Part shown: positions 981 to 61,889 of the stretch, piece after piece
How positions within the stretch are numbered: position 1 is the stretch's first letter
How the letters are laid out: the number at the start of each line of letters is the position of its first letter
NCBI GenBank assembly: GCA_965248755.1
Contig: OZ252149.1
Span: 224,001-288,000, forward strand
From: Candidatus Latescibacterota bacterium
GTDB lineage: Bacteria > Latescibacterota > CBDEFO01
DNA length: 64,000 bases
Direction: 5' to 3'
Program-made: the position numbers and the translations under genes
Notes under the pieces: generated by a model
Database searches by the model: none
What the model saw: only the letters and a program-made list of their open reading frames with translations
What the model was told of the DNA's origin: nothing

Positions 981-1025
981 CCCCCGAATGAACCCCCGAT
1001 TGATTCTATCGGGGGCGATCGGGGG
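981..1025. repeat. Nested short palindromic element (copy within copy)
   Basis: CCCCCGAATGAA [CCCCCGATTGATTCTATCGGGGG] CGATCGGGGG. Confidence 0.9.
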
Positions 1026-1098
1026 TCGCGGTAGAGGAGTCACCATACTGAATTAAGTCATAGGCTGGTCTGGAATTGACAGAGAAAGGAGATTGCGC

Positions 1099-2595
1099 AT
1101 GAGACGACGCCGAACGATCTACTTTAACGATGCGCGACATTACTATCTGTACGCCTTCGAGCCGCCCATGAAGTTGGAGGACGCCTGGAGACCGATAGAT
1201 GAGATCGCCGGCACCGCCGTTGACACGTTCATCTACGGCGTCTCAAGCGGCGGACTCTTCTACCCCTCTAAGATCGGACAACAATGGGGTGGAGATAAAA
1301 GTCCAGTCGCGTATTTTTGGCGTGCACGGAAGAATATGCAGAGCCTGATTGACAGGGGCCTCAACCCACTAACTGTACTCATCGACAGGGCGCATGAGGC
1401 AGGTTTGGACTTTTTTGCTAGCCTGCGGATGGGATCCTTCAGCGGAACTGATTCGAGCTATCAGATTGGTGTGCCCGGACCAATGGACGGCTGTCTGAAT
1501 CTAGCTCATCCAGAGGCGCGCGACCATCAGTTTGCAGTCCTTGAGGAGCTGGCCACAGAGTATTCTGTAGAGGGGATAGAGCTGGACTTCGGCTATCCCC
1601 CGTTCTTCCTCAAGCCCGACGAAGTGGAAAAGCAAACTCCATTGATGACAGAGTACGTCAGTAAGATCTCCCAGATGGTCCGGAATAGGCCGGGCGAGCC
1701 TGGGCAGGTCGGAGCTCGAGTATTCCCCACCGAAAAGATGTGCCTTGAGGCGGGATTGGACGTGCGCACGTGGTTTGAGGAGGGAATCGTTGACTTTGTC
1801 GTGCCGCTTTTGTACGGGTATTTCATGCTCGACCCTGACATGCCCATCGATTGGCTCATTCAATCGGCACATCAAAACGACAGCGCATCTGTCTACGCAG
1901 TGCTTCAACCCTACTCAGAATACGAGAGCGGACCATCTCACCGGAGAAAGTATGCTACACCTGAGATGATGCGTGCTGCTGCGGGAAACTTCTGGGATCG
2001 AGGCGTCGATGGTCTCTACACCTGGTTTTTGCGCTGGCCATTAGGAGATGCGGAACGCAGAATTCTCACGGAGATAGGCAATCCCGAACTATCAAAAGAA
2101 GGGGAAAAGCACTATGTTCTGCCGAGGCGTTGCGAAGATGCGGCAGGTGTTGGGCTTGTCTACGATGCGGCACTGCCCATCCAAATCCCGTCTGCTGACT
2201 CGAATGCACGCTACGAGATCCCCTTCTATGTATCAGATAATATACAAGGTTCTTCTGAGCGCGTACGTGAAGTGCGACTTAAGATCAACGTCAGTAATCT
2301 GGTGACGGCGGACAATCTTGCGATACTGCTGAACGGAAGGTCTCTGTCCCAAGAGACTTGCACGCGCACCTTCGGTGGAACACAGAAGATCGGAAATAGT
2401 AATGTTCCGTACAACGGTCAGTGGTTGGAATTCCGCCTGGAAGGGGAACGTCCACATAAGGGTGAGAACCTGTTAGAGGTGTCGCTGGAGAATAGACCCG
2501 ATGGGCTCACAGGAGGAGTGATAATTGAAGATGTGGAAATCGTCATCGAGTACGGTCCGTATACGTCCAGGTTGAACTACGGACCGTACTCGTAG
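1099..2595 (+). CDS. Putative glycoside hydrolase-like TIM-barrel protein (GHL10-like) with C-terminal beta-sandwich
   Basis: About 500-aa ORF with AAGGAG SD before ATG 1099; motifs AHEAGLDFFASLRM and GIELDF are typical of GHL10-like proteins. Confidence 0.7.
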   Translation: MRRRRTIYFNDARHYYLYAFEPPMKLEDAWRPIDEIAGTAVDTFIYGVSSGGLFYPSKIGQQWGGDKSPVAYFWRARKNMQSLIDRGLNPLTVLIDRAHEAGLDFFASLRMGSFSGTDSSYQIGVPGPMDGCLNLAHPEARDHQFAVLEELATEYSVEGIELDFGYPPFFLKPDEVEKQTPLMTEYVSKISQMVRNRPGEPGQVGARVFPTEKMCLEAGLDVRTWFEEGIVDFVVPLLYGYFMLDPDMPIDWLIQSAHQNDSASVYAVLQPYSEYESGPSHRRKYATPEMMRAAAGNFWDRGVDGLYTWFLRWPLGDAERRILTEIGNPELSKEGEKHYVLPRRCEDAAGVGLVYDAALPIQIPSADSNARYEIPFYVSDNIQGSSERVREVRLKINVSNLVTADNLAILLNGRSLSQETCTRTFGGTQKIGNSNVPYNGQWLEFRLEGERPHKGENLLEVSLENRPDGLTGGVIIEDVEIVIEYGPYTSRLNYGPYS

Positions 2596-2628
2596 CCCCC
2601 CGATTGAATCTATCGGGGGTATCGGGGG
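2596..2628. repeat. Short palindromic element plus extra right arm
   Basis: CCCCCCGATTGAATCTATCGGGGG followed by TATCGGGGG, directly after the stop codon. Confidence 0.9.
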
Positions 2629-2776
2629 TAGACCTGTTCGAAAGGTTCCCAGGTGCACTAACTAAATGCTTCTAATGACCCGTATTTATATCAGAAAGAA
2701 TAAGTTAGGATTCAAGCGATTAGGTTTAACCAACGATGATTAGTTTAAAATAACACATGACTAACTGAAATTAAAT

Positions 2777-2902: not shown

Positions 2903-2988
2903 TAATACATTACGTTGGGGCAACTTGTCATCTCTTGGAAAAACTTAAACCTCGCCTTTCCGAATCAGAGGTAGCTCTTAGTTTTTCC

Positions 2989-3017: not shown

Positions 3018-3027
3018 TTAAGCATTC

Positions 3028-4876: not shown

Positions 4877-4882
4877 GAACAA

Positions 4883-9194: not shown

Positions 9195-9236
9195 CCCCCC
9201 AGATTGACACACGATAGAAGCCATCGGGGACAAGGG
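9195..9236. repeat. Degenerate nested short palindromic element
   Basis: CCCCCCAGATTGA [CACACGATAGAAGCCATCGGGG] ACAAGGG; the inner copy resembles CCCCGATAGAAGCAATCGGGG at 15932. Confidence 0.65.
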
Positions 9237-9506: not shown

Positions 9507-10472
9507 ATGTCAAAAAGGAGGAATACCATTACAGGAACACGATGGGTTTTTCATCTCATAGCTCTGCTGAGTGTCCTCTTGCTGCCACTGGAGACAGGCT
9601 TTGGTCAAGACAATAGCACAAATACAACAAAATCCAGTCTATCAAAGTCGAAAATCGCTTTTGTCTCATACCGCCAGAGCAATGATTTTTTTACTTCGAA
9701 AAGCTCCGAAATTTACGTGATGAACGTTGACGGTACAAACCCAATAAGACTGACCTACAACACGGCGAAGGACTACCTGCCTTCTTGGTCGCCGGACGGG
9801 ACAAAGATCGCATTTGTGTCATATCGCGATGGCAACGGGGAGATCTACGTGATGAACCCTGACGGGACAAACGAAATAAGGCTGACCCACAACTCCGAGT
9901 ATGACACCGCGCCTTCCTGGTCGCCAGATGGGACAAAGATCGCCTTTCGGTCACACCGCGATGGCAACTATGAGATCTATGTGATGAACGCTGACGGTAC
10001 AGACCCGATAAGGCTGACTGACAACCCGGCGCGCGACGGTTTTCCTTCTTGGTCTCCGGATGGAACGAAGATTATCTTTATGTCAGATTCCGATGGCGAC
10101 TATGAAATCTATGTGACGAATGCTGACGGCACAGACCCGATAAGGGTGACCGACAACACGGCGGATGATTTTAGACCTTCCTGGTCTCCGGATGGGCAGA
10201 AGATCCTCTTTTGGTCACACCGCGATGGCAACTATGAAATCTACGTGATGGATAGTGACGGGACAAACCAGACACGGCTGACCGATAACAGGGCGGTAGA
10301 CGACTCGCCCTCTTGGTCTCCGGATGGGACGAAGATCGTCTTTCAGTCAAATCGCGATGGCAATGCGGAAATCTACGTGATGGGCGCAGACGGGACAAAC
10401 CAGACACGGCTGACCGACAACCCGGCGTATGATTGGGGGCCTTCTTGGTCGCCCGCACCGTCCTCCGATTGA
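9507..10472 (+). CDS. TolB-like beta-propeller protein (PD40 repeats)
   Basis: About six 44-aa repeats PSWSPDGTKIAF.S.RDGN.EIYVMN.DGT; signal peptide. Confidence 0.9.
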   Translation: MSKRRNTITGTRWVFHLIALLSVLLLPLETGFGQDNSTNTTKSSLSKSKIAFVSYRQSNDFFTSKSSEIYVMNVDGTNPIRLTYNTAKDYLPSWSPDGTKIAFVSYRDGNGEIYVMNPDGTNEIRLTHNSEYDTAPSWSPDGTKIAFRSHRDGNYEIYVMNADGTDPIRLTDNPARDGFPSWSPDGTKIIFMSDSDGDYEIYVTNADGTDPIRVTDNTADDFRPSWSPDGQKILFWSHRDGNYEIYVMDSDGTNQTRLTDNRAVDDSPSWSPDGTKIVFQSNRDGNAEIYVMGADGTNQTRLTDNPAYDWGPSWSPAPSSD

Positions 10473-10484
10473 ACCTATCGGGGG
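10462..10484. repeat. Short palindromic element overlapping the TolB-like stop codon
   Basis: CCTCCGATTGAACCTATCGGGGG; its TGA (10470-10472) ends the ORF. Confidence 0.85.
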
Positions 10485-15918: not shown

Positions 15919-15965
15919 CCCCCGATTGAATCCCCGATAGAAGCAATCGGGGATTCAATCGGGGG
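15919..15965. repeat. Nested short palindromic element
   Basis: CCCCCGATTGAAT [CCCCGATAGAAGCAATCGGGG] ATTCAATCGGGGG, immediately after the stop codon. Confidence 0.95.
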
Positions 15966-24177: not shown

Positions 24178-24201
24178 CCCCCCGATTGAATCTATTGGGG
24201 G
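24178..24201. repeat. Short palindromic element
   Basis: CCCCCCGATTGAATCTATTGGGGG, just downstream of the larA-like stop. Confidence 0.9.
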
Positions 24202-25757: not shown

Positions 25758-25764
25758 AACCAAT

Positions 25765-25785
25765 CCCCGATTGAATCTATCGGGG
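25765..25785. repeat. Short palindromic element (21-bp form)
   Basis: CCCCGATTGAATCTATCGGGG. Confidence 0.95.
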
Positions 25786-25835
25786 CCAAGGGATGAGAAA
25801 CTGCGTCCCGTCCACTGTGCAGTGAATACTATCTA

Positions 25836-34579: not shown

Positions 34580-34801
34580 TGACTAGTGTGTCATCGAAGG
34601 AGTCATCCCCCACAACATGGTGGACACTGTGTAAACCTTTCTCTTTTATGTCAACGCATGCGTTATCTTATCTCATAGTCCGTATGATTTGTTACCGGTG
34701 GTTCCAGATCGGGTGTGAGGGGATGAAAGTTAAACACACATTCACTTTGGGACGGCGGGCCTTTCGATCAGTTGGTTCCGCTTTGTCATTTTGGAAGAAA
34801 A

Positions 34802-35875
34802 ATGAATGAGTTAGATGGACAGATAGATTCTGTAGAAATTGAGGCGCCTCTGCCCGATGATTTGATAGAGGAGTTGATCGATTTCTGGGAGGTGATCTTC
34901 GAAACTTCCTTTGAAGATCTTCGAAGTGTACTCGCTGCTGCAGAATCTGTACAAAACAGCGATATTCTATACTTAGTGCGCCATGGGAAGAAATTAGCTA
35001 GCAGCTCCCACTTGACAATTTCCAAGTCGAATCCGGAATTGGGAGGATTGGGGGAAATGGCGACTGCTCCTGAATTTCGTCGTCTGGGGCTAGCCAGCAA
35101 ACTCTGCGAGCGTGCGCTTGACGATTTTCGAACACAGGGAGGCCAGGCACTTTTTCTTGGGACGGGAAACCCGGCAGCCGCTCGAGTGTACAATCGTCTT
35201 GGGTGGCGGAAATTGGCAGGAGCCAGCGTAATGGTCTTTATTGCAAGTGGGGACTCACCGGAGACTTTTCTTGTGGACTACTTCAGGAAAGATGGCTCAA
35301 CAACAACTGCAGTAGCCTCGGCCTCTGAGCGCATTCCTATGATCCCACTGCTTATATCTCCTCACGACTGGCAGGTGTTGGACGCCAACGTGGGTATCTT
35401 TTCAACTCGATACGTTGTGCAGTCTTCATGCATGGGGCTCTATCCCCGGTATGAGGCACTCGTCCGAGAGGGCCGAGGTGAATGGTTTCGTGCTCGCACA
35501 GATCGAGGCAATCTGGTCGGACTAGCAACAGCACAACTTGATCAATCCACGATTGACCCCCGATTGAATCCATCGGGGAGCAGGGATCAACCCTCAATTG
35601 AATCTATTGGGACTCAATGCCAGGTGGACGCTTTCACTCATCAAAATTATATAGGCGCTTTGGAAGACCTCATCCAGGCAGCCATGTCCTGGGGCGTTTC
35701 CCGCGGTGTACCTCTATGTTCGGCAACTCTCTCAGTCGAGGATGAAAATAAGCGAGCATTATTCGAGTCCCTGGGATTTCGCGAAGCTGGAACGGGCGAG
35801 GAATTCAATTTGGATGGGAGGCGAGTGGCGTCCGTCCGTTTGGAAAGATCGGCTGCTGATGCCCTGTCCACTTAG
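34802..35875 (+). CDS. GNAT family acetyltransferase containing in-frame palindromic inserts
   Basis: Motif A FRRLGLAS and AARVYNRLGW; second degenerate GNAT domain (LFESLGF). Confidence 0.85.
   Translation: MNELDGQIDSVEIEAPLPDDLIEELIDFWEVIFETSFEDLRSVLAAAESVQNSDILYLVRHGKKLASSSHLTISKSNPELGGLGEMATAPEFRRLGLASKLCERALDDFRTQGGQALFLGTGNPAAARVYNRLGWRKLAGASVMVFIASGDSPETFLVDYFRKDGSTTTAVASASERIPMIPLLISPHDWQVLDANVGIFSTRYVVQSSCMGLYPRYEALVREGRGEWFRARTDRGNLVGLATAQLDQSTIDPRLNPSGSRDQPSIESIGTQCQVDAFTHQNYIGALEDLIQAAMSWGVSRGVPLCSATLSVEDENKRALFESLGFREAGTGEEFNLDGRRVASVRLERSAADALST
35546..35612. repeat. Short palindromic elements inside the GNAT CDS
   Basis: TCCACGATTGA [CCCCCGATTGAATCCATCGGGG] ... CCCTCAATTGAATCTATTGGGA, read as PRLNPSG and PSIESIG. 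Confidence 0.9.
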
Positions 35876-35886
35876 CTGGAGAGATA

Positions 35887-35919
35887 GCAAGCCCCCGATA
35901 GATCCAATCGGGGGCTTGC
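35887..35919. repeat. Short palindromic element, reverse orientation, extended stem
   Basis: GCAAG-CCCCCGATAGATCCAATCGGGGG-CTTGC. Confidence 0.9.
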
Positions 35920-37333: not shown

Positions 37334-37515
37334 TCGCGATAAACAGGTAAGGCGGTAGCTCTACATTTAGTAAACAGTAGATAGGGCACCTCAGCCCTCT
37401 GTTGCTATCTAATCGTTGAGGCAGAATTGATGATACTATTGTTCCTTATGTTGTGAGGCATCTAAAGCAGTAAGTGGATAAGAGTAGAGAAAACATAAGG
37501 AAAGACAGGCTCACA

Positions 37516-39516
37516 ATGACAGAGATACCTTGGGCAAAAATCGGTAAACCCCTCGAAGACCTGCTCAGGTACGAGCGCCAGCTAGGCCACTACGAACACG
37601 CCGGCTACGATCTCATCTCCACCCTCGTCCACTCCCCGATCCCCGACAGAAGCAATCGGGGATCAATCGGGAACTGGCGCTCATTCATCCTGGGGGACGA
37701 CCACTTCGAAACCGTGGTTTCTCAGGTCATCGCCATATCAATAAAGGATAGCATAACTCCCAAAACGGCCCTCGACACAATTCGCACAATTGCTGAAGCA
37801 GCCTATGCCAACTTCCCTCAACAGGCCCCTTTGTTCCTCGAAGCGTACCTGAAACAGAGGCCGTACTTCCCGGGTTCCGTGCGCGACCAGCTGGACCAGC
37901 TCGCCGCAGCGGGAACTACCTCGATCCCTCTCTGCGCGGCTGCCTTGGCCGTGGAAATACAGCGCGCCAAACCCGTGGAGACGCAGGACGAGGCTGAAAA
38001 GGAGGTGTTCGACCACTGGTACGGGCGCATCGTCCGGGAGGAAATCTCCGAGCATCAGGCAAAGACCATACCTGCGCAGATCCTGGAAGCAGAAGCCCGG
38101 CTGCTGGAGCACTTGCAGGAGATGGAGGAGAACGTACAGGCCGACAAAGCAACCCTTTACAAAAGCTACAGCTGCATCCTCAAGTCGAACAATATTCCGA
38201 CGCTGACCGATCTGGTGACGGCCGCGTCCAAGTCCGGGCTTGGCATCAGCGTCGAACAGGTCGAAAACTTTCTGGAAAACCTCTCGAGGGACGAGGCCCT
38301 ACATCGCTTCGAGCAACTGGGCGCGTGGATTGCCCGGATCAACAACCAGAACCACGACGGCGTCACGTTGACGCCCGTGCTGACCGACTACCTGGCGCAA
38401 CCATCTGATTTCGAGTCCCTCATAGGCGAACTGGATCGCCTCAGAGCAGAGACCCGCGCCGGCCACTTCCGCATGAACAATGAACTGCAAAAAGAACTGG
38501 AATACATGCGCTTCACCACTGAGTACAACTGGCAATTCGACGAGCCGTTGGACACCTCGGAGCACTACGCCATGTTCGAGCAGTTGCAAAAACTGCCGCC
38601 GCCCTGCGAGGAAGAATTCGAGCTGGACGGACAGCACCTGGTGGAAGTCAGGCGCGTCGCGTACGAGGCCGTGGGCTTTCTACGCTTCCTGAGAGAATTT
38701 CGCGCGAGGACCAGCCGCCGCATCGCAGTTATAGGCAACGACCGCTACGGCAGGCAGTGGGTCGTCGAGCCCCAGGAGGACTACCTGCACGACGGCTTCA
38801 CTCTGCACTACTTCCGCAACCCCTCGCACATGTCCATGCGTCTGAAGGTCCGCCATGAACTCTTCTACAACATCCGCATGGGGTTCACAAGGGATTTCGT
38901 CAAAGACCTCAACCAGCACATGCCTCACGTGGTGATCGCCGACAGTTGCAGTCCCAGGGGTGGCGACCAGATCATGCAGCTCTCCCGGGGCTGCCGCGAT
39001 TACGTCAACTGGTTCATGGTCTTCAACGATATCCGCGCCCAGAGCGATGGCTCCAGGTACGAAGCCCACAGCTCCCTGCCGCCAGAGCACTTGCCCGAGC
39101 TGAAGAAGTGGCACGAGTTCACCAGGGTGAGGCGGCAGTTGCAGGACTGGGTCGACCCGGGACCCACCTACAAAATCGCGCACTGGGCCCCGGTGCAGAA
39201 GGAGACGGTGCTCCTGGGGGATTTCACAGTGCCTCGCAAAGACCCGGACTTGGACGACGACAGCCCACAGGTCATAATCGCCAATCCCGTGGTGTACCCT
39301 GACGATAATAATGAAATCCCTGAGCCCTTGCGCGGAACTAGCCCTTACTATTTCGATGACCCCGAGAGATACGAAAAAGAGGAGGTACTCTTCGGCTTCG
39401 GAGATCACGGCTTCGAGACCCGGCTCAAGGGTGTGACCACCGATACCTTTGTAGCCGCCATCCAGCACTACATGAAGACGGAAATTGATAGGCTCCTGCG
39501 GGAAACAGGTGACTGA
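37516..39516 (+). CDS. Hypothetical protein with in-frame nested palindrome
   Basis: Long ORF with GC-biased codons; no family recognised. The ORF is open from 37474. Confidence 0.75.
   Translation: MTEIPWAKIGKPLEDLLRYERQLGHYEHAGYDLISTLVHSPIPDRSNRGSIGNWRSFILGDDHFETVVSQVIAISIKDSITPKTALDTIRTIAEAAYANFPQQAPLFLEAYLKQRPYFPGSVRDQLDQLAAAGTTSIPLCAAALAVEIQRAKPVETQDEAEKEVFDHWYGRIVREEISEHQAKTIPAQILEAEARLLEHLQEMEENVQADKATLYKSYSCILKSNNIPTLTDLVTAASKSGLGISVEQVENFLENLSRDEALHRFEQLGAWIARINNQNHDGVTLTPVLTDYLAQPSDFESLIGELDRLRAETRAGHFRMNNELQKELEYMRFTTEYNWQFDEPLDTSEHYAMFEQLQKLPPPCEEEFELDGQHLVEVRRVAYEAVGFLRFLREFRARTSRRIAVIGNDRYGRQWVVEPQEDYLHDGFTLHYFRNPSHMSMRLKVRHELFYNIRMGFTRDFVKDLNQHMPHVVIADSCSPRGGDQIMQLSRGCRDYVNWFMVFNDIRAQSDGSRYEAHSSLPPEHLPELKKWHEFTRVRRQLQDWVDPGPTYKIAHWAPVQKETVLLGDFTVPRKDPDLDDDSPQVIIANPVVYPDDNNEIPEPLRGTSPYYFDDPERYEKEEVLFGFGDHGFETRLKGVTTDTFVAAIQHYMKTEIDRLLRETGD
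37634..37672. repeat. Nested short palindromic element inside a CDS
   Basis: CCCCGAT [CCCCGACAGAAGCAATCGGGG] ATCAATCGGGA, read as PIPDRSNRGSIG. Confidence 0.9.
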
Positions 39517-51700: not shown

Positions 51701-51830
51701 CCACATAACCCTTGTCCCGTTCGGCTTTGGTCCACTTGTCCTTCGCGCTCGCCTCTCCTTGTCCACGTGCACTGACCGCCACTAACCCAATTGCCAGCAG
51801 TGCAAGACCAATCATGCTACGGTGTCCCAT
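48756..51830 (-). CDS. GH123-like (DUF4091) hydrolase + HEAT repeats + GH2-type sugar-binding domain
   Basis: Signal peptide after AGGAGG SD; DEYESLQFGV, GPDEP and WEMRREGVDDYRYL; HEAT repeats; C-terminal LHFGAVDESAWLYVDG...GGLYKPV. Confidence 0.75.
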   Translation of the reverse strand: MGHRSMIGLALLAIGLVAVSARGQGEASAKDKWTKAERDKGYVVFAYSTMKNLPAGHVPRRESTVNRLTCVLATDEYESLQFGVHAIADDVEAISVNVESDLDVTVYHRILPAVKEQLALEPMDSGEVSGWIPSKILLQRGNVFPVLGAGQSVNFWLTFHADRDTKPGRHLGKVRIRTAGKSPTFVDLAITVRPFALQRPRIPYGMWCREDMLPKRFGGVSTSRETMLKIYRDMAVHGQNAGAFYPAGNFFPVAPENDHVLHKLLPLAKEAGLVDPQVSSTLIGGITGGYTREQVEEAASWLQAECREKGWPELVGFGPDEPDYPEEDIEVREACESMRGTSFRMNLDQSELSAVYGYSTYGLYDIQTVAEGVVTPEVMAEAKRLGTEMQVYSYTIWRDGFYPVRQRYFAGLHTWSMGLRGNWIWAYNHGKHRHAWFAPGSDEPQPVTGWEMRREGVDDYRYLQMLQDAVEANHEKPLAREAKSWLAGLRARLGKITQPLDVVAGKPLALAEYDEIRARAASYIQRLGPIPPAAMAPQPRRRPTDEAAPFRGKSVTACIKGLRDADASQRRAAAWALFDMGPKAAAATATLAQLLDDDDVRMPALHALEAIGPQAYPAVPQIARLLKHPDSYFRMGAVLTLARIGCPLDKRVKSGRRSPSAQAATVAGPLAGALLDEHPVVARKVATIISALGPAAKLAIPTVITMLESSNRATRASGVALITGLGQDAAGAAATLAELHAKSPGNSAVIKALAAIGPAAEMAIPALEKYAAKDDPGNEQAESYYALTCIRGGTADLWKMVNLLKNPRVTVVTKNYVVTLFDELGPRAAPVGDAVRSLTKDGKFTNTKRVSGFGKTSPAEAHYVDGADCRNLVPRLRVLARLPIDGWRFKDDPRGVGVEEGYFRPDFPSANLSEIKIAEFWDEQGFKDLREGWYRLRYKCPDLPDGKRLFLHFGAVDESAWLYVDGKLVAWYDTADPDETWSKPFLLDVSGSLKSQGEYLLAIKVHNYSGSGGLYKPVSLMVEK

Positions 51831-51920
51831 GTTAAACCTCCTAATTTCGTCAGTGAATCGTTCCTCACAATGTCTTGGTACACGCTTTAGGACTTCTCTC
51901 GAGTGCATTTCCGATGCTAG

Positions 51921-52505
51921 TCAACTTGCGTTTTGTTGACTGTATTGCCTCGCGGCATTGGTCATTGCCCGGATGTTCTCAGGGGGTGCTTCGGGGGGGA
52001 TCCCGCATCCGCCGGAGAGAAAGAAACGGCCCGAAGCCCCGAGTGCTTCGATGTTGTGCCGTGCCCACCGTGCCCATAAACGGTGATAGTCGCCGGCTGA
52101 GCTTGGCAAACCACACGCGGTCGTCGCGAATGGGTAGTTTGCGCACCACTTCAGAAAGACTCTCGGTAAGCATTGCCGTAACCGTGGTTCCCGTGAGCAG
52201 GCCGAATCTCGGCACCAAACCCGTAACCGCCCGGTCCCGAGTAATTTCGATGTCATCAATGTGCACGAGCAGGGTGTCGCCCTCCTCCTCGCCATTGACG
52301 TAGACCGGTCCTCTTTGCGGGTTCTAGTACGGATATTCACAGACCTCGGAATAACTTTGGTCTTCGCGCACCAGGCGATTCTCAAAGCAGTCCACACAGT
52401 GAATACGTACACGCTGCCCTGGCTCTACATTCGCAATCGCTTCATGGGCAGCCAAATACGTATACCCATACCGTTGGTGTTTATGAAAATCCACGATTTA
52501 GTCAC
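51921..52505 (-). pseudogene. Fused relic: acetamidase/formamidase N-terminal part + URO-D family C-terminal part
   Basis: VEPGQRVRIHCVDCF...PY*NPQRGPVYVNG...GDTLLVHIDDI with in-frame TAG at 52324-52326, then in another frame FFLSGGCGIPPEAPPENIRAM. Confidence 0.65.
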
Positions 52506-52534
52506 TCGTGCTACTGCTCCTTGCGACTCCTTCT

Positions 52535-55132
52535 TCAGTTGTACGGCAGCAACCTGAGCGGGCTTCCGCCTTCCTCAACTCTGCGGAAAAATGTCAACTC
52601 GAGTTGGCTGACCAGATCAGGTCTAGCCTTCAGAAGGGACAATCGATCCCGCACCAGGGGGGCGACCGGTGCGGCTTTGGCGCCGAGAGCGATGAGGTAC
52701 CTGACTACATCCTTCCACGCCCCCGAATTCTCCTTGTCACCCAGCAGCCCGACCATAGTTTTGAGGTCTGACTCCTCGCCACGAATGCAGAACAGGGCGT
52801 AGCATGTGTCAGCCAGGTGTGAGTTTTGCGGCGTGCGGTACCGCTCCAGGACGGAAACGGCGTCGGATGCAGCCGGTCCAATGGCTGCCAGCGCCAGCGT
52901 GACATAGCGATTTTTGGCTTTGGCAGCGGTGTAATGCTCGACTAGAAGGGGGACGGCTGCCGCGGCTGCCGGCCCCATCCCGGCCAGCGCCCGCGTCGCG
53001 GCGCCAACGTTGTCGTGCGGTTTGCCTGCGACCAGCTTCATTGCGTCGGACAGTGCCGGTGCAGCGGCCTCGCCGCAACGGGAGAGCCCGTACCCGGCTA
53101 CCCACACGATGTCCTGATGCGAATCACGCAGCGCTTGCCGCAACGCAGGTACGACTACGTGAGCATACGGCGACACATCCTCGAGTGCATATCCGTTGAA
53201 ATCTTCATCCCAGTTTCGGGGGCGGGCGATACCGGCCAGGGCGAACGTCGCGCCCTGGCGCACGACAGCATCTGGATGTGACAGCAGCGAGGCTATTTTC
53301 GCCGCCGCCGGATACGCATCGGGGCCGATCGCCTCAAGTGCGTGCAGGGCGGGAAAACGAACTTCCGGATCATCGAGCAACGGGATAAGCGCCGGCGTGG
53401 CTTTAGCGGCCTGTGGGCCCAGTTCATACAGCGCCCACGCAGCTGCCCGGCGTTTAGAAACATCAGAACCACGCAGCCCCGCGATACACCGTTTCACCGA
53501 CTTGCCGCGGAAGGCCGCAGCCTCGTCCTTCAGACCCCTACCGGTCCGCCGCTCTTTCCGGTTCACTATCGGGCCGAGCTTTTCAATGTAATCGGCCGCC
53601 GTGGCTCGAATCGCGTCATACTCCTCAATCGTCAACGGCGCGCCTGCCTCCACCTGGTGCGGCAGGATGGATTTTATCGTCAGGCGTGCCCTTAACGCCT
53701 CCACCCATGCCCCCGCCTCGATAGCTGTCGGGTCGGGTGTCTTCGCCTCGACCAGGTCCTCGACCATCTGAAGGTAGCGATAGTCGTCAACGCCTTCGCG
53801 GCGGCCCTCCCAACCCGTGTGTGGCATCGGCTCGTGGCTGTCTGGTTTCCACCAGACCTGACTGTGAACCCCGGTGCCCGCGTATACCCACAGCCAATTT
53901 CCTTCGATCCGGTGCGCCCAGGTGTGCAGTCCGACGTAGTAGCGCTGAGTAATCGGGCTGAAGCTCTGCCTCCATATACGATAGGAGTAGCTCCAGACCT
54001 CTGCACCCATCCGTTTGGCCTCGGCCTGAAACTCGGGTGTGAGCAAGCCGTCGTGTAAGGTCCACACGTCGAGAAAATCACCATAGGCGTACGCCGGCGA
54101 GATGTGACTCATATCCGCCGACACGCGAATCGGCAACGGGCGCAGGGGAGTAAAGATTTTCCGAAACCCGAGCGCTGGATACATCCCTTCATCCCGACCG
54201 AATAAGACAATCTCCGGCCAGCCGAGCCGGCGCCCCTCCTTCCCCAGCCAAGCCACTGCCGCCTTCTGCTGCGTTCGGGAAATGTCATCACCGACCATGC
54301 TGGCCACGGTTACAACGGGAATTCGCGGGCGAGTGAGCCCCGCCTTTTTGGCCAATGCGAGGGATTTCTCCACCATCCGGCTGTTTAGTGGCGGCAACTC
54401 GGTCCGGTAGTCTCCCCCACCATAGAATGTAACCGAGTTCTGCCCGTGCGCCGCCATATCCCGGTAAAACGCCAGCGCAACCTGATCCTCCAGTTCCCAG
54501 GATCCAAATCGCTTGGGTAACATATCCTCACGAAAGTACACGGCAAATACGGCTCGCGGCTCTGCCAGTTGAAAAGGCCTGACGCGCACCTGCAAGTCCA
54601 GCTCGGTCGCTGGCCGACCGTCCGGCTCAATGCGGATCTTACCCTGATGCACACCGTGAGGTGTTTCAGGATCAGCACGGAACAGCAGCCAAAAATTGAT
54701 GGATTCGCCTTTAGCAAGTTCGCCAACAACCTCTCCTCGCTGCAAATACACTTCGCTTGGCACCCGCATTAGCACCGTCGCGCCGGGTTCTGAGGCCACT
54801 TGTTGCTTGATGCCTGGATCGATGCGGTGATAGACCGTCACCTCGAGGTCAGATATCACCGTGACCCGGATGTTGGTCAAGCCACCTGCCAGCGCGTGAA
54901 CACCAATCTGAACCGGCTCGTACTCATCCCCGGCTAACGAGCATGAAACTTTCTCGGCAACGTCGCCCGGCGTGGGCACGTGCGAAGGCGGCAGGTTCTT
55001 AAGCGTGCTGTAATTAAAGACAACGTAACCCTTGTCTCGATCCACTTTCATCCACTCCATGGGCCCACAGGCATTGAGAGCCGTTAATCCAACGGCCAGC
55101 AATGTATAGGCAACTATGCTGCGTTTTCTCAT
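52535..55132 (-). CDS. GH123-like (DUF4091) hydrolase + HEAT repeats, signal peptide intact
   Basis: MRKRSIVAYTLLAVG signal; GRDEG and WEGRREGVDDYRYL; ALAAIGPAA HEAT repeats. Confidence 0.8.
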   Translation of the reverse strand: MRKRSIVAYTLLAVGLTALNACGPMEWMKVDRDKGYVVFNYSTLKNLPPSHVPTPGDVAEKVSCSLAGDEYEPVQIGVHALAGGLTNIRVTVISDLEVTVYHRIDPGIKQQVASEPGATVLMRVPSEVYLQRGEVVGELAKGESINFWLLFRADPETPHGVHQGKIRIEPDGRPATELDLQVRVRPFQLAEPRAVFAVYFREDMLPKRFGSWELEDQVALAFYRDMAAHGQNSVTFYGGGDYRTELPPLNSRMVEKSLALAKKAGLTRPRIPVVTVASMVGDDISRTQQKAAVAWLGKEGRRLGWPEIVLFGRDEGMYPALGFRKIFTPLRPLPIRVSADMSHISPAYAYGDFLDVWTLHDGLLTPEFQAEAKRMGAEVWSYSYRIWRQSFSPITQRYYVGLHTWAHRIEGNWLWVYAGTGVHSQVWWKPDSHEPMPHTGWEGRREGVDDYRYLQMVEDLVEAKTPDPTAIEAGAWVEALRARLTIKSILPHQVEAGAPLTIEEYDAIRATAADYIEKLGPIVNRKERRTGRGLKDEAAAFRGKSVKRCIAGLRGSDVSKRRAAAWALYELGPQAAKATPALIPLLDDPEVRFPALHALEAIGPDAYPAAAKIASLLSHPDAVVRQGATFALAGIARPRNWDEDFNGYALEDVSPYAHVVVPALRQALRDSHQDIVWVAGYGLSRCGEAAAPALSDAMKLVAGKPHDNVGAATRALAGMGPAAAAAVPLLVEHYTAAKAKNRYVTLALAAIGPAASDAVSVLERYRTPQNSHLADTCYALFCIRGEESDLKTMVGLLGDKENSGAWKDVVRYLIALGAKAAPVAPLVRDRLSLLKARPDLVSQLELTFFRRVEEGGSPLRLLPYN

Positions 55133-55342
55133 GTTCCATCTCCTTCCAGCGAGTTAAGATCCGAATTGTCCGCACGCTGCGACCGGACAACACGCTTGCC
55201 CAGATGTGGGCCCTTTATCCCAATATCCACCTGATGATCCGGTTTGTTAGGCCGGGGCATGAGTTCACCTTCAAAACAAGAGCTGTCAGTTACCTCCCAA
55301 CCACAGGTGCTAGAGCCTCCCCTGGAAGTTTCGTATAAGCTT

Positions 55343-56047
55343 GACGTCGAAGACCCGTCGTCCGGGTACGGTCACTTTGACCTCGCCGGCCTCGACCCAG
55401 GGGATAAACGGCGCCAGGATTGTCCACTCCACCAAGCCCATAACCAGCATCTATGCCGGCACAATCAAAATTCGACCCTGAACGCCGGGCAGCAATGGGC
55501 ACGCCGAACGCTATTGGCTCTGATCTCTTTATTCGTCTCGAATGATATGGAAACAACTGGCCAACCGTACAGGAGCTGATAGAGGTTTTTTATGCAAGCC
55601 ATTGCCTATCTTGACGGGCAGTTGACGGCAATTCGGTCAAATAGACCGTCCCGTCTGATTCGGCCAGCGGTTCCAAAGCGACATCAGGACTACCACCTGA
55701 AAGAAACACCCGGCACCTCTCCCCTTTTCACTTTGTCAAGGAAAGACTCCAGGTCCTCTTCCCAATCGGAAAACTTCCCCGACTCGACCATCTGGCGGAT
55801 CTCATCGGCAACAGGTTCCGCCTTTGCTCCCAGTTCATTGAGGAGCTTTACAACTCGCTTCTTCGTCTCGGTGTCCTCATCCGCGTCCTTTAGCAACTCG
55901 ACCATTTTCCGGAGGTCGGAAACCTCATTCCGGATGCAGAAAAGCGCATAGTATGAGTCTGCCCGATTAGGACCGGAGTCCTCCTTTACGGCGTATTCTT
56001 CCAGAGCCGGAATGGCCGATTTGGCGGCCGGGCCAATGGCTGCCAGC
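55343..56047. repeat. Direct repeat copy 1 (gene 3' end + spacer), paired with 58275-59046
   Basis: Near-identical DNA including the intergenic relic; this copy lacks about 66 bp between the TCGTCCGG/TCGTCTGG microhomologies. Confidence 0.9.
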
Positions 56048-58233
56048 GTCCAGGTTACGGGACGATCTTTACCTTTGGCGGCCGCGTAAGATTCGACTAG
56101 AAGGGGGACGGCTGCCGCTGCTGCCGGACCCATCCCACACAGCACCCGCAGCCCGGCCGCGCGGTTGTCGCTTGTTTCCTGGGCCATCTTCATTGCGTCG
56201 CGCAGTGTCGGCGCGGCGGCCTCTCCGCAACGGGACAGCCCATACGCAGCAATCCACACGACATCCTGATGCACATCACGTAGCGCTTGCCGCAACGGCG
56301 GTACAACCGTCTGAGCATAAGGCGACACATCCTCGGGTGCGTATCCGTTCACATCCTCATCCCAGTTTCGTGGGCGGGCGATGCCGGCCAGGGCGAAAGT
56401 CGCGCCCAGGCGCACGAAAGCATCAGGATGTGACAGAAGCGAGGCTATGTTCGGCGCCGCTGGATACGCATCGGGGCCGATCGCCTCGAGTGCGTGCAGG
56501 GCGGGAAAGCGCACTTCCGGATCATCGAGCAACGGGATAAGTGTCGGTGTCGCTTGAGCGGCCTTGGGGCCCAGTTCATACAACGCCCACGCCGCCGCCC
56601 GGCGTTTAGAAACATCAGAACCATTCAGTCCCGCGACACACTGTTCCAGCGACTTGCCGCGGAAGGCCGCAGCCTCGTCCTTCAGACCCCTACCGATCCG
56701 CCGCTCTTTCCTCTCCACTATCGGGCCGAGCTTTTCAATGTAATCGGCCGCCGTGGCTCGAATCGCGTCATATTCCTCGACGTCCAGGGGCTTGCCTGCC
56801 ACCACCTCGTGCGGATCGATGGCCGTGAGCGTGAAGCGTGCCCTCAGCGCCTCCAGCCATGCCCCCGCCTCGATGGCTGTCGGGTCGGGTGTCTTCGCCT
56901 CGACCAGGTCCTCGACCATCTGCAGGTAGCGATAGTCGTCAACTCCTTCGCGGCGGCCCTCCCAACCCGTATGGGGCATCGGCTCGAGGCTGTCCGGTTT
57001 CCACCAGACCTGACTGTGACGCACATGAGTGTATCCCCACAGCCAATTGCCTTCGATCCGGTGCGCCCAGGTGTGCAGTCCGACGTAGTAGCGCTGAGTA
57101 ACCGGGCTGAAGTTCTCCCTCCATATGCGATAGGAGTAGCTCCAGACCTCTGCACCCATCCGTTTGGCTTCGGCCTGCAACTCGGGTGTGAGCAAGCCGT
57201 CGTGCACAGTCCACACGTCGTGAATACCACCATACGCGTGCGCCACCGAGATGTGACTCATGTCCGTCGAGAGGCGAATCGGCAACGGGCGCAGGGGAGC
57301 ATAGGTTTCCCTCATCCCGAGCGCTGGATACATCCCTTCATCCCGGCCGAATAAGACAATCTCCGGCCAGCCGAGCCGGCGCCCCTCCTTCCCCAGCCAG
57401 GCCACCGCCGCCTTCTGCTGCGTTCGGGAAATGTCATCACCGACCATGCTGGCCACGGTTACAACGGGAATTCGCGGGCGAGTGAGCCCCGCCTCTTGGG
57501 CTAGTGCGAGGGACTTCTCCACCATCCGGCTGTTTAGTGGCGGCAACTGGGTACGGTAGTCTCCCCCACCATAAAATGTAACCGAGTTCTGCCCGTGCGC
57601 CGCCATATCACGGTAAATCGCCAGCGCCACCTGATCCTCCACGTCCCAGGTCCCAAAGCGCTTGGGCAGCATGTCCTCACGAAAGTACACGGCAAATACG
57701 GCTCGCGGCTCTGCCAGTTGAAACGGCCTGACACGCACCCGCAGGTCCAGCTCGGTCGCTGCCCGATCGTCCGGCTCAATGCGGATCTTACCCTGATGCA
57801 CCCCGGGAGGTGTGTCAGGATCAGCACGGAACAGCAGCCAAAAATTGATGGATTGCCCTTCAGCAAGTTCGCCAACAACCTCTCCTCGCTGCAGATACAC
57901 CTCGCTTGGCACCAACTCCTGCACCACCGACTCGGGTTCTGCAGCCAGCTGTTTCCTGAGGCCTGGATCAATGCGGCGATAGACCGTCACCTCGAGATCC
58001 GATGCCACCTTGACCCGAATGTTGGTCAAGCCATCGGCCAGCGCGTGAACACCAATCTGAACCGGCTCGTACTCATCCCCGGCTAAGGTGCATGAAACCT
58101 GCTTGGCAACGTCGCCCGGCGTGGGCACGTGCGAAGGCGGCAGGTTCTTAAGCGTGCTGTAATTAAAGACAACGTAACCCTTGTCTCGATCCACTTTCAT
58201 CCACTCCATGTGTGCACCTGAATTATCCTTCAT
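55690..58233 (-). CDS. Chimeric GH123-like + HEAT repeat protein, no signal peptide
   Basis: Body resembles 52535-55132; the last about 115 aa resemble 58687-61224. Confidence 0.8.
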   Translation of the reverse strand: MKDNSGAHMEWMKVDRDKGYVVFNYSTLKNLPPSHVPTPGDVAKQVSCTLAGDEYEPVQIGVHALADGLTNIRVKVASDLEVTVYRRIDPGLRKQLAAEPESVVQELVPSEVYLQRGEVVGELAEGQSINFWLLFRADPDTPPGVHQGKIRIEPDDRAATELDLRVRVRPFQLAEPRAVFAVYFREDMLPKRFGTWDVEDQVALAIYRDMAAHGQNSVTFYGGGDYRTQLPPLNSRMVEKSLALAQEAGLTRPRIPVVTVASMVGDDISRTQQKAAVAWLGKEGRRLGWPEIVLFGRDEGMYPALGMRETYAPLRPLPIRLSTDMSHISVAHAYGGIHDVWTVHDGLLTPELQAEAKRMGAEVWSYSYRIWRENFSPVTQRYYVGLHTWAHRIEGNWLWGYTHVRHSQVWWKPDSLEPMPHTGWEGRREGVDDYRYLQMVEDLVEAKTPDPTAIEAGAWLEALRARFTLTAIDPHEVVAGKPLDVEEYDAIRATAADYIEKLGPIVERKERRIGRGLKDEAAAFRGKSLEQCVAGLNGSDVSKRRAAAWALYELGPKAAQATPTLIPLLDDPEVRFPALHALEAIGPDAYPAAPNIASLLSHPDAFVRLGATFALAGIARPRNWDEDVNGYAPEDVSPYAQTVVPPLRQALRDVHQDVVWIAAYGLSRCGEAAAPTLRDAMKMAQETSDNRAAGLRVLCGMGPAAAAAVPLLVESYAAAKGKDRPVTWTLAAIGPAAKSAIPALEEYAVKEDSGPNRADSYYALFCIRNEVSDLRKMVELLKDADEDTETKKRVVKLLNELGAKAEPVADEIRQMVESGKFSDWEEDLESFLDKVKRGEVPGVSFRW

Positions 58234-58274
58234 GTTAGCTTCCCCCTCCGTTGACATTGAGAGCCGTTAATCCA

Positions 58275-59046
58275 GACGTCGAAGGCCCGTCGTCCGGCAT
58301 CCAGGCGAGCCACTACCTTGTTGGTGAAGAGATCAATTACCTCCAGATTCTCTCGTCTGGGTACGGTCACTTTCATCTCACCGGCCTCCGCCAAGGCGAC
58401 AAACAGCGCCAGGATCGCCCACGCCACCAAGCCCATAACCAGCAGCCATGCCGGCACAATCAAAATTTGACCCTGAACGCCGGACAGCAATGGGCATGCC
58501 GAATGCTATTGGCCCTGATCTCTTTGTTAACCTCCAATGATATGGAAATAACTGACCAACCGCACAGGAGCTGATAGAGGTTTTTTATGCAAGCCATTGC
58601 CTATCTTGACGGGGCAGTTGACGGCAATACGGTCAAATAGAACCGTACCGTCTGATTCGGCCAGCGGTTCCAAAGTGACATCAGGACTACCACATGAAAG
58701 AAACACCCGGCACCTCTCCCCTTTTCACTTTGTCAAGGAAAGACTCCAGGTCCTCTCCCCAATCGGAAAACTTCCCCGACTCGACCATCTGGCGGATCTC
58801 ATCGGCAACAGGTTCCGCCTTTGCTCCCAGTTCATTGAGGAGCTTTACAACTCGCTTCTTCGTCTCGGTGTCCTCATCCGCGTCCTTTAGCAACTCGACC
58901 ATTTTCCGAAGGTCGGAAAGCTCATTCCGGATACAGAAAAGCGCATAGTATGAGTCTGCCCGGTTAGGACCGGAGTCCTCCTTTGCAGCGTATTCTTCCA
59001 GAGCCGTAATGGCCGATTTGGCAGCCGGACCGATAGCAGCCAGCGC
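58275..59046. repeat. Direct repeat copy 2
   Basis: Matches 55343-56047. Confidence 0.9.
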
Positions 59047-61224
59047 GTTAATGTACCTGATGTCCTCAGATTTGTTCTTGTGCATTTCGATGAGCTTTGG
59101 CACTGTTGCGGCGGCATCCGGACCCAGTCCAGTAATCAGGCCGATTGCTGCGCTTTGACGCGTGTGAGAAGGGTCATCGAGCATTGTGATCGCCTGCGGC
59201 AGAGCGGGCCTGGCAAGATTCCCCATGACGGAGAGCATTCCCGCCGCCTGGGATGACAGCGATGCATTATCATCCCGGTAGGCGACCATCAGCGGTTCGG
59301 CGACGATCGCGGCCCATTCCGAAGGCGATCTGCGCCCGCTGCGGTCGCGTTTATCCAACGGGCACCCGATCTCACCTAGAGCTAATATAGCACCCAGACG
59401 CACGTAGAAATCGGGATGATTCAGCAGCCGTACTATCTTGGGCACGGCCCGATATGCCTCCGGACCGATGTGCTCAAGTGCGTGCAGGGCGGGTATTCGC
59501 ACCTCGGGATCATCAAGCAACCGGGCCAGCGGCTCTGCGGCCTGCGCCGCTTTCGGTCCTAGCTCAAAAAGGGCCCAGGCAGCAGCGCGACGTTCTGACA
59601 CATCCGAACTGGCCAGACCGGCGATACACTGTCTCACCGACTTACCCCGGTAAGATGCTGCCTCATCCTTGGCGTGCGATATCGGCGGACGAGACACAGC
59701 CTCGTTTGGAACAGGGCCCAGTCGTTGGATATAGTCGGCCGCCCTGGCTCGAATCTGGTCGTATTCATCAAGCTCCAGAGGCTTGCCGGCCTCCACTTCG
59801 TTGGGAACGGTGGCCGAAAGACGGACCCTCAGGGCCTGCAGCCACGCCGCTGCTTCAATCGCCAGTGTCTCGTCTGGATTGGCCGCAACGCAGTCCTCGA
59901 CCATCTGCAGGTATCGGTAGTCATCAATCCCTTCCCGCCGGGCCTCCCAGGCAGTAACGGGCATCGGCTCGTGACTCTCAGGCGTAAACCAGACATGCCG
60001 GTGATGCCCGTGGTGATACGCCCAGACCCAATTGCCCCCGAGCTGGTATGTCCAGGTGTAAAGCCCCGCAAAGTAGCGCTGGCTGAAAGGATAGAAATGC
60101 TCTCGCCATATGCGGTACGAATACGTCCAGATCTCTGTTCCCACACGTCTCGCCTCGTCCAGCATCTCAGGCGAGATCATTCCATCCATCACGTTCTGGA
60201 TGTCGCAAAGATCGCCGCCATACCCGTATGCCGACGTTCCAGACAGATCCACGACCACCCGCATGGGAAAGCCGCGCAGATTCCTCAACTCTCTGCTGAC
60301 CGCATCATAGTCCCGCGGGTAACTCGGCTCGTCCGTGCCAAATACAATCAACTCAGGCCATCCCCGTTGCCTTCGCTCTGCTTCCAACCAGGCAGCCGCT
60401 GCCTTCAGTTCCTCATCATTGAGGCCCCCGGGAATTCCGCCTGCGATCAAGCTGGGCACTTCCGGGTCAAGGAGGCCGGCCTGCTGGGCCAGCGGGATCA
60501 GCTTGTCAAGCGCATAGTTGTTCCTGGGCGGCAAGTCGCTAAAGCTTCCCAACGGATAGAACCAACTGGAATTGTGGCCGTGCTCCGCCATGTCCCGGTA
60601 CATGGCCAGTACCGATTCCTTCGGCGTCGCCAGGCCCCCAAAACGTTTCGGCAGCATGTCTTCTCGAAAGTACACGCCAAAAGGCACTCTGGGGCGCTGA
60701 AGCTGGAACGGCCGCACCTTCACCTCGAGACCCAGCACAGTCCCCCGCCTGCCCGCAGCCTCTATCCGAACCTTCCCCCGGTGCAGGCCCTCTGTCGTCT
60801 CGGCATCCGCCCTGAACGTAAGCCAGAAGTTGACGCTCTCACCTGTCGGAAGCTCTTCAAACACGTTCCCTCGCTGCAGATGTATCTGACTTGGTGTCCG
60901 CCGTGCAATCTCATCCATCTCCGCTGGTTCGGATGCCAGTTGCTCTTTGACACGCGGGCTGATCCGGTGATAAACTGTCACTTTTAGATCTGACTCCACC
61001 TTCACCTGTATATCTTTGATGTCGTCCGACAGCGCGTGCACGCCGAACTGAATAGACTCGTACTCATCCCTGGCTAAAGCGCACGAAACCTTCTCCGCAA
61101 CGTCACCCGGCGTGGGTACGTGCGAAGGCGGAAGGTTCTTAAGCGTACCGTAATTGAATACTACGTAGCCCTTGTCTCGATCCAGTTTCATCCACTCCAT
61201 GGGTGCACCTGAATTATCCTGCAT
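58687..61224 (-). CDS. GH123-like + HEAT repeat protein; signal peptide cut off by an in-frame TAA
   Basis: GTDEP and WEARREGIDDYRYL motifs; the in-frame upstream ATG at 61308 encodes MRKRSIVAYTVLAVG... and ends in TAA at 61231-61233. Confidence 0.8.
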   Translation of the reverse strand: MQDNSGAPMEWMKLDRDKGYVVFNYGTLKNLPPSHVPTPGDVAEKVSCALARDEYESIQFGVHALSDDIKDIQVKVESDLKVTVYHRISPRVKEQLASEPAEMDEIARRTPSQIHLQRGNVFEELPTGESVNFWLTFRADAETTEGLHRGKVRIEAAGRRGTVLGLEVKVRPFQLQRPRVPFGVYFREDMLPKRFGGLATPKESVLAMYRDMAEHGHNSSWFYPLGSFSDLPPRNNYALDKLIPLAQQAGLLDPEVPSLIAGGIPGGLNDEELKAAAAWLEAERRQRGWPELIVFGTDEPSYPRDYDAVSRELRNLRGFPMRVVVDLSGTSAYGYGGDLCDIQNVMDGMISPEMLDEARRVGTEIWTYSYRIWREHFYPFSQRYFAGLYTWTYQLGGNWVWAYHHGHHRHVWFTPESHEPMPVTAWEARREGIDDYRYLQMVEDCVAANPDETLAIEAAAWLQALRVRLSATVPNEVEAGKPLELDEYDQIRARAADYIQRLGPVPNEAVSRPPISHAKDEAASYRGKSVRQCIAGLASSDVSERRAAAWALFELGPKAAQAAEPLARLLDDPEVRIPALHALEHIGPEAYRAVPKIVRLLNHPDFYVRLGAILALGEIGCPLDKRDRSGRRSPSEWAAIVAEPLMVAYRDDNASLSSQAAGMLSVMGNLARPALPQAITMLDDPSHTRQSAAIGLITGLGPDAAATVPKLIEMHKNKSEDIRYINALAAIGPAAKSAITALEEYAAKEDSGPNRADSYYALFCIRNELSDLRKMVELLKDADEDTETKKRVVKLLNELGAKAEPVADEIRQMVESGKFSDWGEDLESFLDKVKRGEVPGVSFMW

Positions 61225-61650
61225 GTTAGCTTACCCCTCTCTATTGACATCAAGAGCTATTAATCCGACGGCTAGGACCGTATAGGCAACTATGCTGCGT
61301 TTTCTCATGTTTCATTTCCTTCCAGTGAGTTAAGATCCGAGTTGTCCGCCTGCCGCGACCGGCCAATTGGCTTCTCCAGATGTGGGCCCTTTATTCCAAT
61401 ATCCACCTGATGAGCCGGGCTTCTCGGGCTGGGATAGAGGAACGGCGGTAGAGTTTACTATCGTGGTTTCCGGCTTCAAAAACATAGATAGAATAGTGAA
61501 GGACTGAAGGGTTTAAACCCTTAGACAGTAACTTTTTCAAAAACATTTTTTCTTTTTTCTGGAAAAGTTCATAGAAAACCCTTCATCTCTTCAGTCTCCC
61601 TGGACAAAAAAACGTAATAGCCAGGTAACGTTTTCTCAAGGGAGGAAAAA

Positions 61651-61836
61651 ATGAATGTTTAAGACCTCGTTACAGTCAAAGAGGAAGCCCAGTTCTTAAG
61701 GTGCTTGGAAAGGCACGTGCACAATGTTTATAGAGTCTGGATTGGTCGCAGCCACAAACCGGGGAAACAGTTCCTCCTACCCAGAAGCAGTGTCTTGAGC
61801 TACTTCAAGAGATGCAAATATGCCCCCTTTGAGTAG
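61651..61836 (+). pseudogene. Excisionase-like helix-turn-helix relic
   Basis: GGAGG SD, then MNV*DLVTVKEEAQFLRCLERHVHN / IESGLVAA / KPGKQFLLPRSSVLSYF across frameshifts. Confidence 0.5.
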
Positions 61837-61848
61837 TGGCTCTACCTG

Positions 61849-61889
61849 CCCCCAACCACCAATTGAATTTATTGGGGGTTCAATCTGTG
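61849..61889. repeat. Degenerate nested short palindromic element
   Basis: CCCCCAA [CCACCAATTGAATTTATTGGGGG] TTCAATCTGTG. Confidence 0.7.

Follow-up and report, generated by a model that had tools for sequence, protein, structure and literature searches.

A probably mobile 23-nucleotide hairpin in a Candidatus Latescibacterota genome and its likeness to CGTC-type REPs

How repeats of 20-30 bases multiply has been an open question since the small dispersed repeats (SDRs) of cyanobacteria, and the CGTC-type repetitive extragenic palindromes (REPs) have also been described without a mover. The Nostoc repeats SDR1-8, from the work of Elhai et al. in 2008, are reportedly hairpins of 21-27 nt that occur in hundreds of copies, their mover unknown, and they are said to nest in other repeats and in heptamer arrays, inserting precisely and without duplication. 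Here we describe a hairpin of 23 nt that is dispersed through a 64,000-nucleotide stretch (the window) of Candidatus Latescibacterota bacterium (contig OZ252149.1, positions 224,001 to 288,000) and through the rest of its 4.54-Mb, one-contig genome (G000). It resembles the SDRs in its size (21-27 nt), its hairpin form and its hundreds of copies; relatives show sites both filled and empty, and the element nests in other repeats as well as in itself. Set against the SDRs, it differs in phylum, probably in sequence, and in having two insertion classes, in one of which 4 bp are duplicated and in the other replaced. In its behaviour the element is like the cyanobacterial SDRs; its descent is probably from CGTC REPs.

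The CGTC-tagged REPs (Di Nocera et al. 2013, PMC3733652) are equivalent to the Ssn-related motifs, or NTS, which go with the GIY-YIG nucleases for single-stranded DNA known as Ssn (Chenal et al. 2025, PMC11893778). A near-identical hairpin in another phylum is a CGTC-type REP of this kind and forms one arm around an ssn gene: in G075, G149 and other genomes it has a TGTC/CGTC tag, A-T first pairs, an 8-bp stem, head-to-head dimers and ssn between two arms. An initial annotation, made from the letters of the window, had called the element REP/RPE-like, and this stem-loop bears it out. The G000 copies differ in that they have neither the 5' tag nor the A-T first pair with a CC tail, begin one pair further in, at the second pair of the stem, may have C-G as their outer pair, stand singly rather than as dimers and were inserted one by one, in a genome with no ssn gene flanked by the motif. 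REP doublets (REPINs) moved by RAYT transposases are the replicating unit, and singlets are seen as remnants, in the relevant part of Bertels and Rainey (2011, PMC3116915). The likeness lies in a short, palindromic, non-autonomous DNA and a small enzyme gene flanked by the repeat, a layout shared by the tagged two-arm ssn unit; the difference lies in G000, where singlets are the unit gained, RAYT is absent and no GTAG is fixed at the stem foot (GTAG lies within 8 nt to the left of 24/540 copies, in no fixed place). SDR5 inserts into HIP1 according to PMC4390886, which, like PMC2884548 and PMC3116915, cites the 2008 work on the SDRs; HIP1 is not abundant in G000 (49 sites). In line with the initial annotation, no exact match to a described REP or insertion sequence (IS) end was found in the literature, and full-text searches, which did not cover the consensus figures of PMC3733652 that could contain the hairpin, gave no match to the motif or its tagged form. 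Neither a link between SDRs and Ssn nor a description of tag-less mobile cores of Ssn repeats was found in the literature. New here are the link to Ssn and two insertion sizes (+19/+20 and +27).

We read the element as the detached stem-loop of a CGTC-type, Ssn-related REP, moved as single-stranded DNA by a passing Ssn-type nuclease with the help of host repair, and put the probability of this reading at roughly one half. A single hairpin occurs here in two forms, with its tag next to an intact gene for a 98-aa nuclease and without it in copies numbering hundreds, and dozens of before/after sites fix the geometry of insertion, so that the question becomes one for an oligonucleotide assay. The element is thus a lead on the spread of the smallest mobile DNAs, by way of a concrete enzyme-substrate test.

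The 23-nt unit and the geometry of its insertion

At up to four mismatches the genome-wide count asked for by the initial annotation came to 572 copies in G000, 105 of them exact; the statistics given here use 534 distinct, 540 or 572 copies, depending on the test. The bases that flank the 21-mer core pair with each other in 75.5% of the 534 distinct copies, compared with 44.6% in shuffles, as T-A in 236 and C-G in 165 copies, and past this outer pair the flanks show no excess of fold-back at positions 2-12. The identity of the pair follows the loop variant (GAGTC, 31 T-A and 0 C-G; GCTTC, 15 and 1; GACTC, 7 and 16), which means that it is copied with the element. The unit is therefore 23 nt, the 21-mer plus a covarying outer pair that subfamilies inherit, and the size of 21-23 bp first proposed stands at 23 nt and falls at 21 nt. 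The predicted fold is a 7-bp stem with a 7-nt loop, of which the middle three bases vary and the others are conserved in sequence. The element is a non-coding DNA hairpin, and Rfam gave no match to it.

Comparison with a congener, G001, was made over 2.0 of its 4.6 Mb, counting flanks of at least 88% as orthologous. Such flanks were found for 145/565 G000 site clusters and 138/239 G001 clusters; the other genome lacked the copy at 15 of the former and 15 of the latter, which gives 30 filled/empty sites, and 93 of the 145 orthologous G000 copies were kept between the two species. The empty alleles mark these events as insertions and not deletions: they restore host sequence that is known, and in multicopy hosts most alleles are empty. 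The element is in all likelihood mobile, having been gained site by site between sister species. The initial annotation had anticipated both the very short non-autonomous mobile element and its presence/absence polymorphism in relatives.

Net length changes at the 30 sites fell at +19 (seven), +20 (three) and +27 (seven), none at +23, and the other 13 were spread from +4 to +91. When paralogues and loci of other genomes were added, 104 site clusters were obtained, of which 20 replace four host bases, 16 three and 8 two, 20 add four, none replaces zero or one, and 40 take other values. Insertion of the element into itself took away four host bases in 30/49 cases, against 4.6 in re-paired controls, nearly always at host positions 12-15 and from either orientation. 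The +27 class consists of an exact 4-bp target duplication or of a CCTG/CTTG carried on one side: CCTG/CTTG stands in front of 51/540 copies, its mirror behind 22/540 and both at 0/540, and this never-both pattern (about 2 expected if independent) is suggestive only. Insertion without target duplication holds for the +19/+20 and CCTG-led classes, and 23/534 copies are flanked by 4-bp direct repeats, where 3.2 were expected. The junctions carry a purine to the left of the unit in 82% and a pyrimidine to the right in 74%; since all 23 duplicated 4-mers read YnnR as a result of this bias, that pattern is not independent evidence. A 3-bp duplication class (46 copies with 3-bp direct repeats against 13.5 expected) was not accepted, because 35 of the 46 are TAG, CTA, CAA or TTG, as a 4-base replacement within a 7-base array leaves; one filled/empty pair shows a 4-base replacement leaving such a repeat. 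The simplest reading, and a somewhat better than even bet, is that each event involves a pair of strand breaks with four bases between them, which are either removed (+19) or kept beside a duplicate or carried 4-mer (+27).

An enzyme-free origin would suit several of these features: at stalled forks, copies would spread through gene conversion or through template switching guided by microhomology, and the +19 and +27 registers would be inherited from founder donors. The duplicated 4-mers (TCAA, TTGA, TGAA, CCGA, TCTA) and the common flank words are words of the element itself, the same nested composites recur 17 and 12 times, and G000 offers no candidate nuclease. Unrelated single-copy targets, however, yield the same sizes and none of +23, the unpaired loop bases are conserved by sequence, and letter-for-letter spread across phyla needs a vehicle, so that we consider this origin improbable.

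In G079 (L352, L353) the element forms runaway stacks, in which AAGCCTGCCC leaders recur along one side and 3' arms along the opposite one; the stacks arose from successive insertion of the 27-nt form into itself.

Copies in the window and their landing sites

The window holds 12 matches at up to five mismatches, against a mean of 0.26 and a maximum of 2 in 100 Markov simulations. All 11 sites listed at the outset are real and occur in both orientations as noted, though several of the starts given were the outer halves of nested copies; the 21-nt cores begin at 994, 2598, 9209, 10463, 15932, 24180, 25765, 35558, 35893, 37641 and 61857, and a twelfth, at 35592, is added. The supposed loop variant is an ordinary variant read on its reverse strand. 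The copies, with their state in G001 where compared, are as follows.

981..1025, plus strand: nested composite, a 23-nt copy (993-1015) within the two halves of an older copy; from the sequence, with the same composite in G001.
2597..2628, plus strand: 23-nt copy (2597-2619) 1-2 bp past a stop codon, then a 9-nt repeat of its own 3' arm; G001 lacks the extra 9 nt.
9195..9230, minus strand: decayed copy (core 9209-9229) with the left half of another copy before it; from the sequence, less decayed in G001.
10462..10484, plus strand: 23-nt copy overlapping the stop codon of a TolB-like gene (9507-10472); from the sequence.
15919..15965, minus strand: copy (core 15932-15952) within a perfect 13-bp inverted repeat that is the element's own arm, directly behind a stop codon; one long hairpin is predicted (-25.8 kcal/mol, z -9.8), and G001 is 12 nt shorter here.
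24179..24201, plus strand: 23-nt copy between a LarA-like gene and its downstream neighbour; from the sequence, common to G001.
25764..25786, plus strand: 23-nt copy with exact consensus core at the edge of another repeat (folding -6.6 kcal/mol, z -3.1); from the sequence, and G001 differs.
35546..35579, plus strand: nested copy (core 35558-35578) within a GNAT-domain open reading frame (ORF), 34772-35875, frame kept; G001 is 18 nt shorter, also in frame, and the first part of the shorter allele was seen in contigs of three sequencing runs from other studies.
35587..35617, plus strand: copy (core 35592-35612) flanked by the 4-bp direct repeat TCAA, inside ORF 34772-35875; from the sequence.
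35892..35914, minus strand: 23-nt copy 16 bp past the stop of 34772-35875; from the sequence, common to G001.
37634..37671, minus strand: nested copy (core 37641-37661) within ORF 37474-39516, frame kept; G001 has a different nested form, 6 nt longer and in frame.
61849..61889, plus strand: decayed nested copy (core 61857-61877); from the sequence, with no orthologue in the G001 stretch compared.

Five of these copies overlap a stop codon or lie within 25 bp of one, in agreement with the first count, and three cores are inside long open frames; the two ORFs that hold copies keep their frame in both genomes despite the 18- and 6-nt differences. The gap remarked on at 40-61.8 kb is indeed free of copies and is unremarkable, as 37/571 inter-copy gaps in the genome reach 24 kb. 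Nor did the 36 window ORFs scanned give an NCBIfam transposase match at E 1e-8, which upholds the earlier remark that no transposase is visible there.

Genome-wide, 427 of the 572 copies lie outside called ORFs, 60 in ORF interiors and 85 near ORF ends. Of the 366 copies that have a stop codon upstream, 123 are no more than 30 bp from it, compared with 14.7% of random intergenic sites, and this, together with the 93/145 orthologous copies kept between the two species, is what a host-selected but immobile motif (a terminator, RNA stabiliser or protein-binding site) would lead one to expect. A T-run follows only 2/540 copies, however; 61 copies lie between divergent genes in addition to those within ORFs, either orientation occurs behind stops (74 and 105), orientation does not switch between replichores, gain is a length-changing insertion, and the element is found in none of 39 other genomes of the phylum. 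As an origin the host-selected motif is refuted, the intrinsic terminator is rejected on the T-run and on the copies in divergent spacers and ORFs, and the initial annotation's question whether copies are confined to terminator positions is answered in the negative.

Landing shows a preference for other hairpin repeats and for the element itself. Another repeat motif lies within 40 bp of 239 of the 427 non-ORF copies, as against 6.9% of random intergenic sites; among these 427, the neighbours are CGTC-type tags (108), heptamer arrays (61), GTAG-type repeats (38) and pieces of the element (75). In GTCATT-tagged hosts 43/53 de-duplicated copies are oriented with the tag, though some may have been amplified together with their host.

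The tagged form, ssn genes and the search for a mover

At up to two mismatches the element is matched in 2/41 genomes, G000 and G001 (491 strand matches in the latter), and in none of the 39 others of the phylum; a reversed control gave 0. Among the matches listed in a wider collection scan are the congener within Candidatus Latescibacterota, Deltaproteobacteria, at least one Thermodesulfobacteriota and at least one archaeal contig, with 8-54 strand matches in five genomes from that scan, and a wider pattern is matched in 19/61 relatives of G041. The G+C content of metagenome loci that hold the exact core lies anywhere between 36 and 68%. Viral contigs gave 0 matches to the local form and 4 to the wider pattern, plasmids gave two matches that are both at chance level, no RNA run was among the sequencing runs listed as holding the element, and no excised form was seen in contigs of sequencing runs, contigs being the only data searched. 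A 3.5-kb contig titled Nanoarchaeia archaeon (L077) has one exact copy and may be misbinned.

The tagged pattern occurs in 25/401 genomes sampled from the phylum of G075; a tag-less pattern with the CCTG leader was found in 5 of these 401, each a relative of G041. The lead towards ssn came from G075, itself among the relatives of G041: here the hairpin bears a TGTCA tag and is arranged in head-to-head dimers, and a frameshifted GIY-YIG (ssn) gene has a tagged copy on either side. The ssn gene of G149 (G149:C101:8576-8869; L414:1380-2340) is intact, encodes 98 aa and has two different hairpin arms around it, a sibling arm and the tagged hairpin; tandem gene-less two-arm units adjoin, an arrangement that looks like the autonomous/non-autonomous pair of a REPtron. 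GIY-YIG genes were compared at 40 loci, with percentages given relative to the G149 98-aa protein. The nearest homologues carry the element's arm (G075, 79%; a G348 fragment, 74%), and in G403 (66%) a tagged copy lies 169 bp from the gene; homologues at or below 63% are accompanied by different motifs, one of which, the GTCATTGCGAG type, is the element's main host in G000. A tree built from 26 proteins places those of G149, G346 and G075 together in a 100/100 clade. Ssn is the only gene tied to the hairpin, and the tie is an association only.

It is probable that the tagged form is the ancestor and that its tag was lost. An arm of an Ssn-repeat hairpin would first have lost its tag; the first tag-less stage would be the CCTG-led 27-mer, retaining the ancestral A/G at position 7 (leader-bearing copies have A/G there in 63/100), and the next the bare 23-mer that is dominant in G000. 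The hairpin, in single-stranded form, may then be excised and joined at breaks with a four-base spacing, a transient Ssn-type enzyme doing the cutting with assistance from host repair. That the cutter is an enzyme of the Ssn clade which visits genomes briefly is a tentative proposal, somewhat short of an even chance. The presence of 457 repeat tags in G000 without an ssn gene indicates that such genes come and go, and the present absence therefore leaves a past role possible. A broader claim is rather doubtful: that bacterial SDR-class repeats are hairpins escaped from Ssn repeats, that Ssn-type GIY-YIG nucleases drive a four-base-stagger single-strand hairpin transposition, and that the 98-aa enzyme of G149 is the cognate mover across phyla.

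A number of observations weigh against movement by an Ssn-type nuclease. No ssn gene is found in G000, and that of G001 is flanked by a different motif. The cognate clade comprises three genes, and in one of them (G346, 85%) the place of the element's arm is taken by the sibling arm and another motif; the clustering of the arm label on the 26-protein tree is not significant (69/500 shuffles). Position 7 is mostly A or G in tagged copies and T in the dominant G000 form, and the direction of descent from tagged to tag-less is unrooted. According to the parts of PMC11893778 on the enzyme's substrate, SsnA cleavage needs three bases upstream of the palindrome, binding needs a C after it, and the cut site is in the upstream flank rather than at the hairpin foot; the G000 copies are without this tag and tail (GTCA to the left of 1/540, TCC to the right of 7/540, both at 0/540), and SsnA cuts upstream of the tag. 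The same parts report no joining activity of Ssn. As to the geometry, 48/104 site clusters lie outside the three main insertion classes, nested events may copy a nested donor and hence not be independent, and the 27-nt forms are not enriched in reading frames (7/43 against 81/529, p 0.83).

The initial annotation had inferred mobilisation in trans and pointed to an HUH/RAYT enzyme. Movement in trans is still only presumed, no candidate enzyme gene having been found in G000; the HUH/RAYT enzyme is not supported, PF01797 being without a match in G000, G001 or G075. A REP singlet moved by such a transposase would fit the REP-sized hairpin and the hints of a single-stranded intermediate, as well as the 10 Y1 matches in G041 and the 38 of 427 copies near GTAG-type repeats. 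Of 12 Y1 loci, though, only one holds a copy, about 1.4 kb from the gene, and with another full copy within 200 bp of only 82/572 copies there are no doublets. To our knowledge, 4-bp duplications are not expected of HUH enzymes. We regard this possibility as highly improbable.

Other candidates fared no better. No stand-alone GIY-YIG gene is present in G000; Ku end-joining was rejected (0/5 genomes), as were the GxxExxY nuclease (none in G000 or G001), a four-helix-bundle protein (G000 has a single, broken gene for it, with the nearest copy 8 kb away, and G001 has none) and reverse transcriptase (two matches in G000 and none in G001, G041, G075 or G079). Fifty-two G000 ORFs have copies on both sides, one of which was scanned against Pfam.

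The same mobile hairpin might instead be moved by another enzyme that cuts or exchanges strands with a 4-base stagger, such as an unrecognised recombinase, a DDE transposase or a type II topoisomerase that exchanges subunits; its likeness to Ssn repeats would then reflect ancestry alone. A fixed 4-base geometry with a carried 4-mer on one side only resembles coupling-sequence or 4-base-overhang chemistry, and G000 has many active DDE elements (IS1380-, IS256- and IS5/IS1182-type and a 1266-bp rve element). Against this, a 4-base loss is not readily given by DDE chemistry, no such enzyme is tied to the hairpin, and no gene family recurs beside it: the neighbours of metagenome copies (148/191 ORFs scanned) are mostly housekeeping genes, with no recurring mobile family. 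We consider it unlikely. A classical miniature inverted-repeat transposable element of a DDE insertion sequence was also rejected, with 4-bp duplication in a minority only and with ends that differ from the hairpin in the 1266-bp element, the one IS whose ends were compared individually. If movement by an Ssn-type nuclease is correct, a minimal transposition route is added, along with a possible tool for short, precise insertions; even if it is wrong, fewer enzymes need be considered because of the four-base rule.

Insertion sequences and other genes

G000 is in a burst of IS expansion. The 1266-bp insertion sequence (G000:C1:4067351-4068616) has an rve-like transposase frame of 316 aa, along with a long antisense one, and is present in 52 full-length, near-identical copies; its two ends do not form an inverted repeat, and the 27-nt hairpin form sits at no fewer than nine related ends. 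Other transposases of G000:C1 are of the IS1380 (50 copies, 1316075-1317472), IS256 (12, 1512987-1514234) and IS5/IS1182 (11, 4014971-4016377) types. The two reverse-transcriptase matches lie at G000:C1:3731483-3732284 and 3677786-3679310, in frames of 266 and 507 aa. The ssn gene of G001 (L315, G001:C4:479839-480120) has canonical arms, stands between two duplicated gene pieces and is missing from G000. Within the window, 48756-61224 on the minus strand has four long ORFs (845-1050 aa) without an NCBIfam match, and ORF 39742-40350 resembles Lit, a phage exclusion protein, with a match (E 3e-16) that falls short of the family cut-off.

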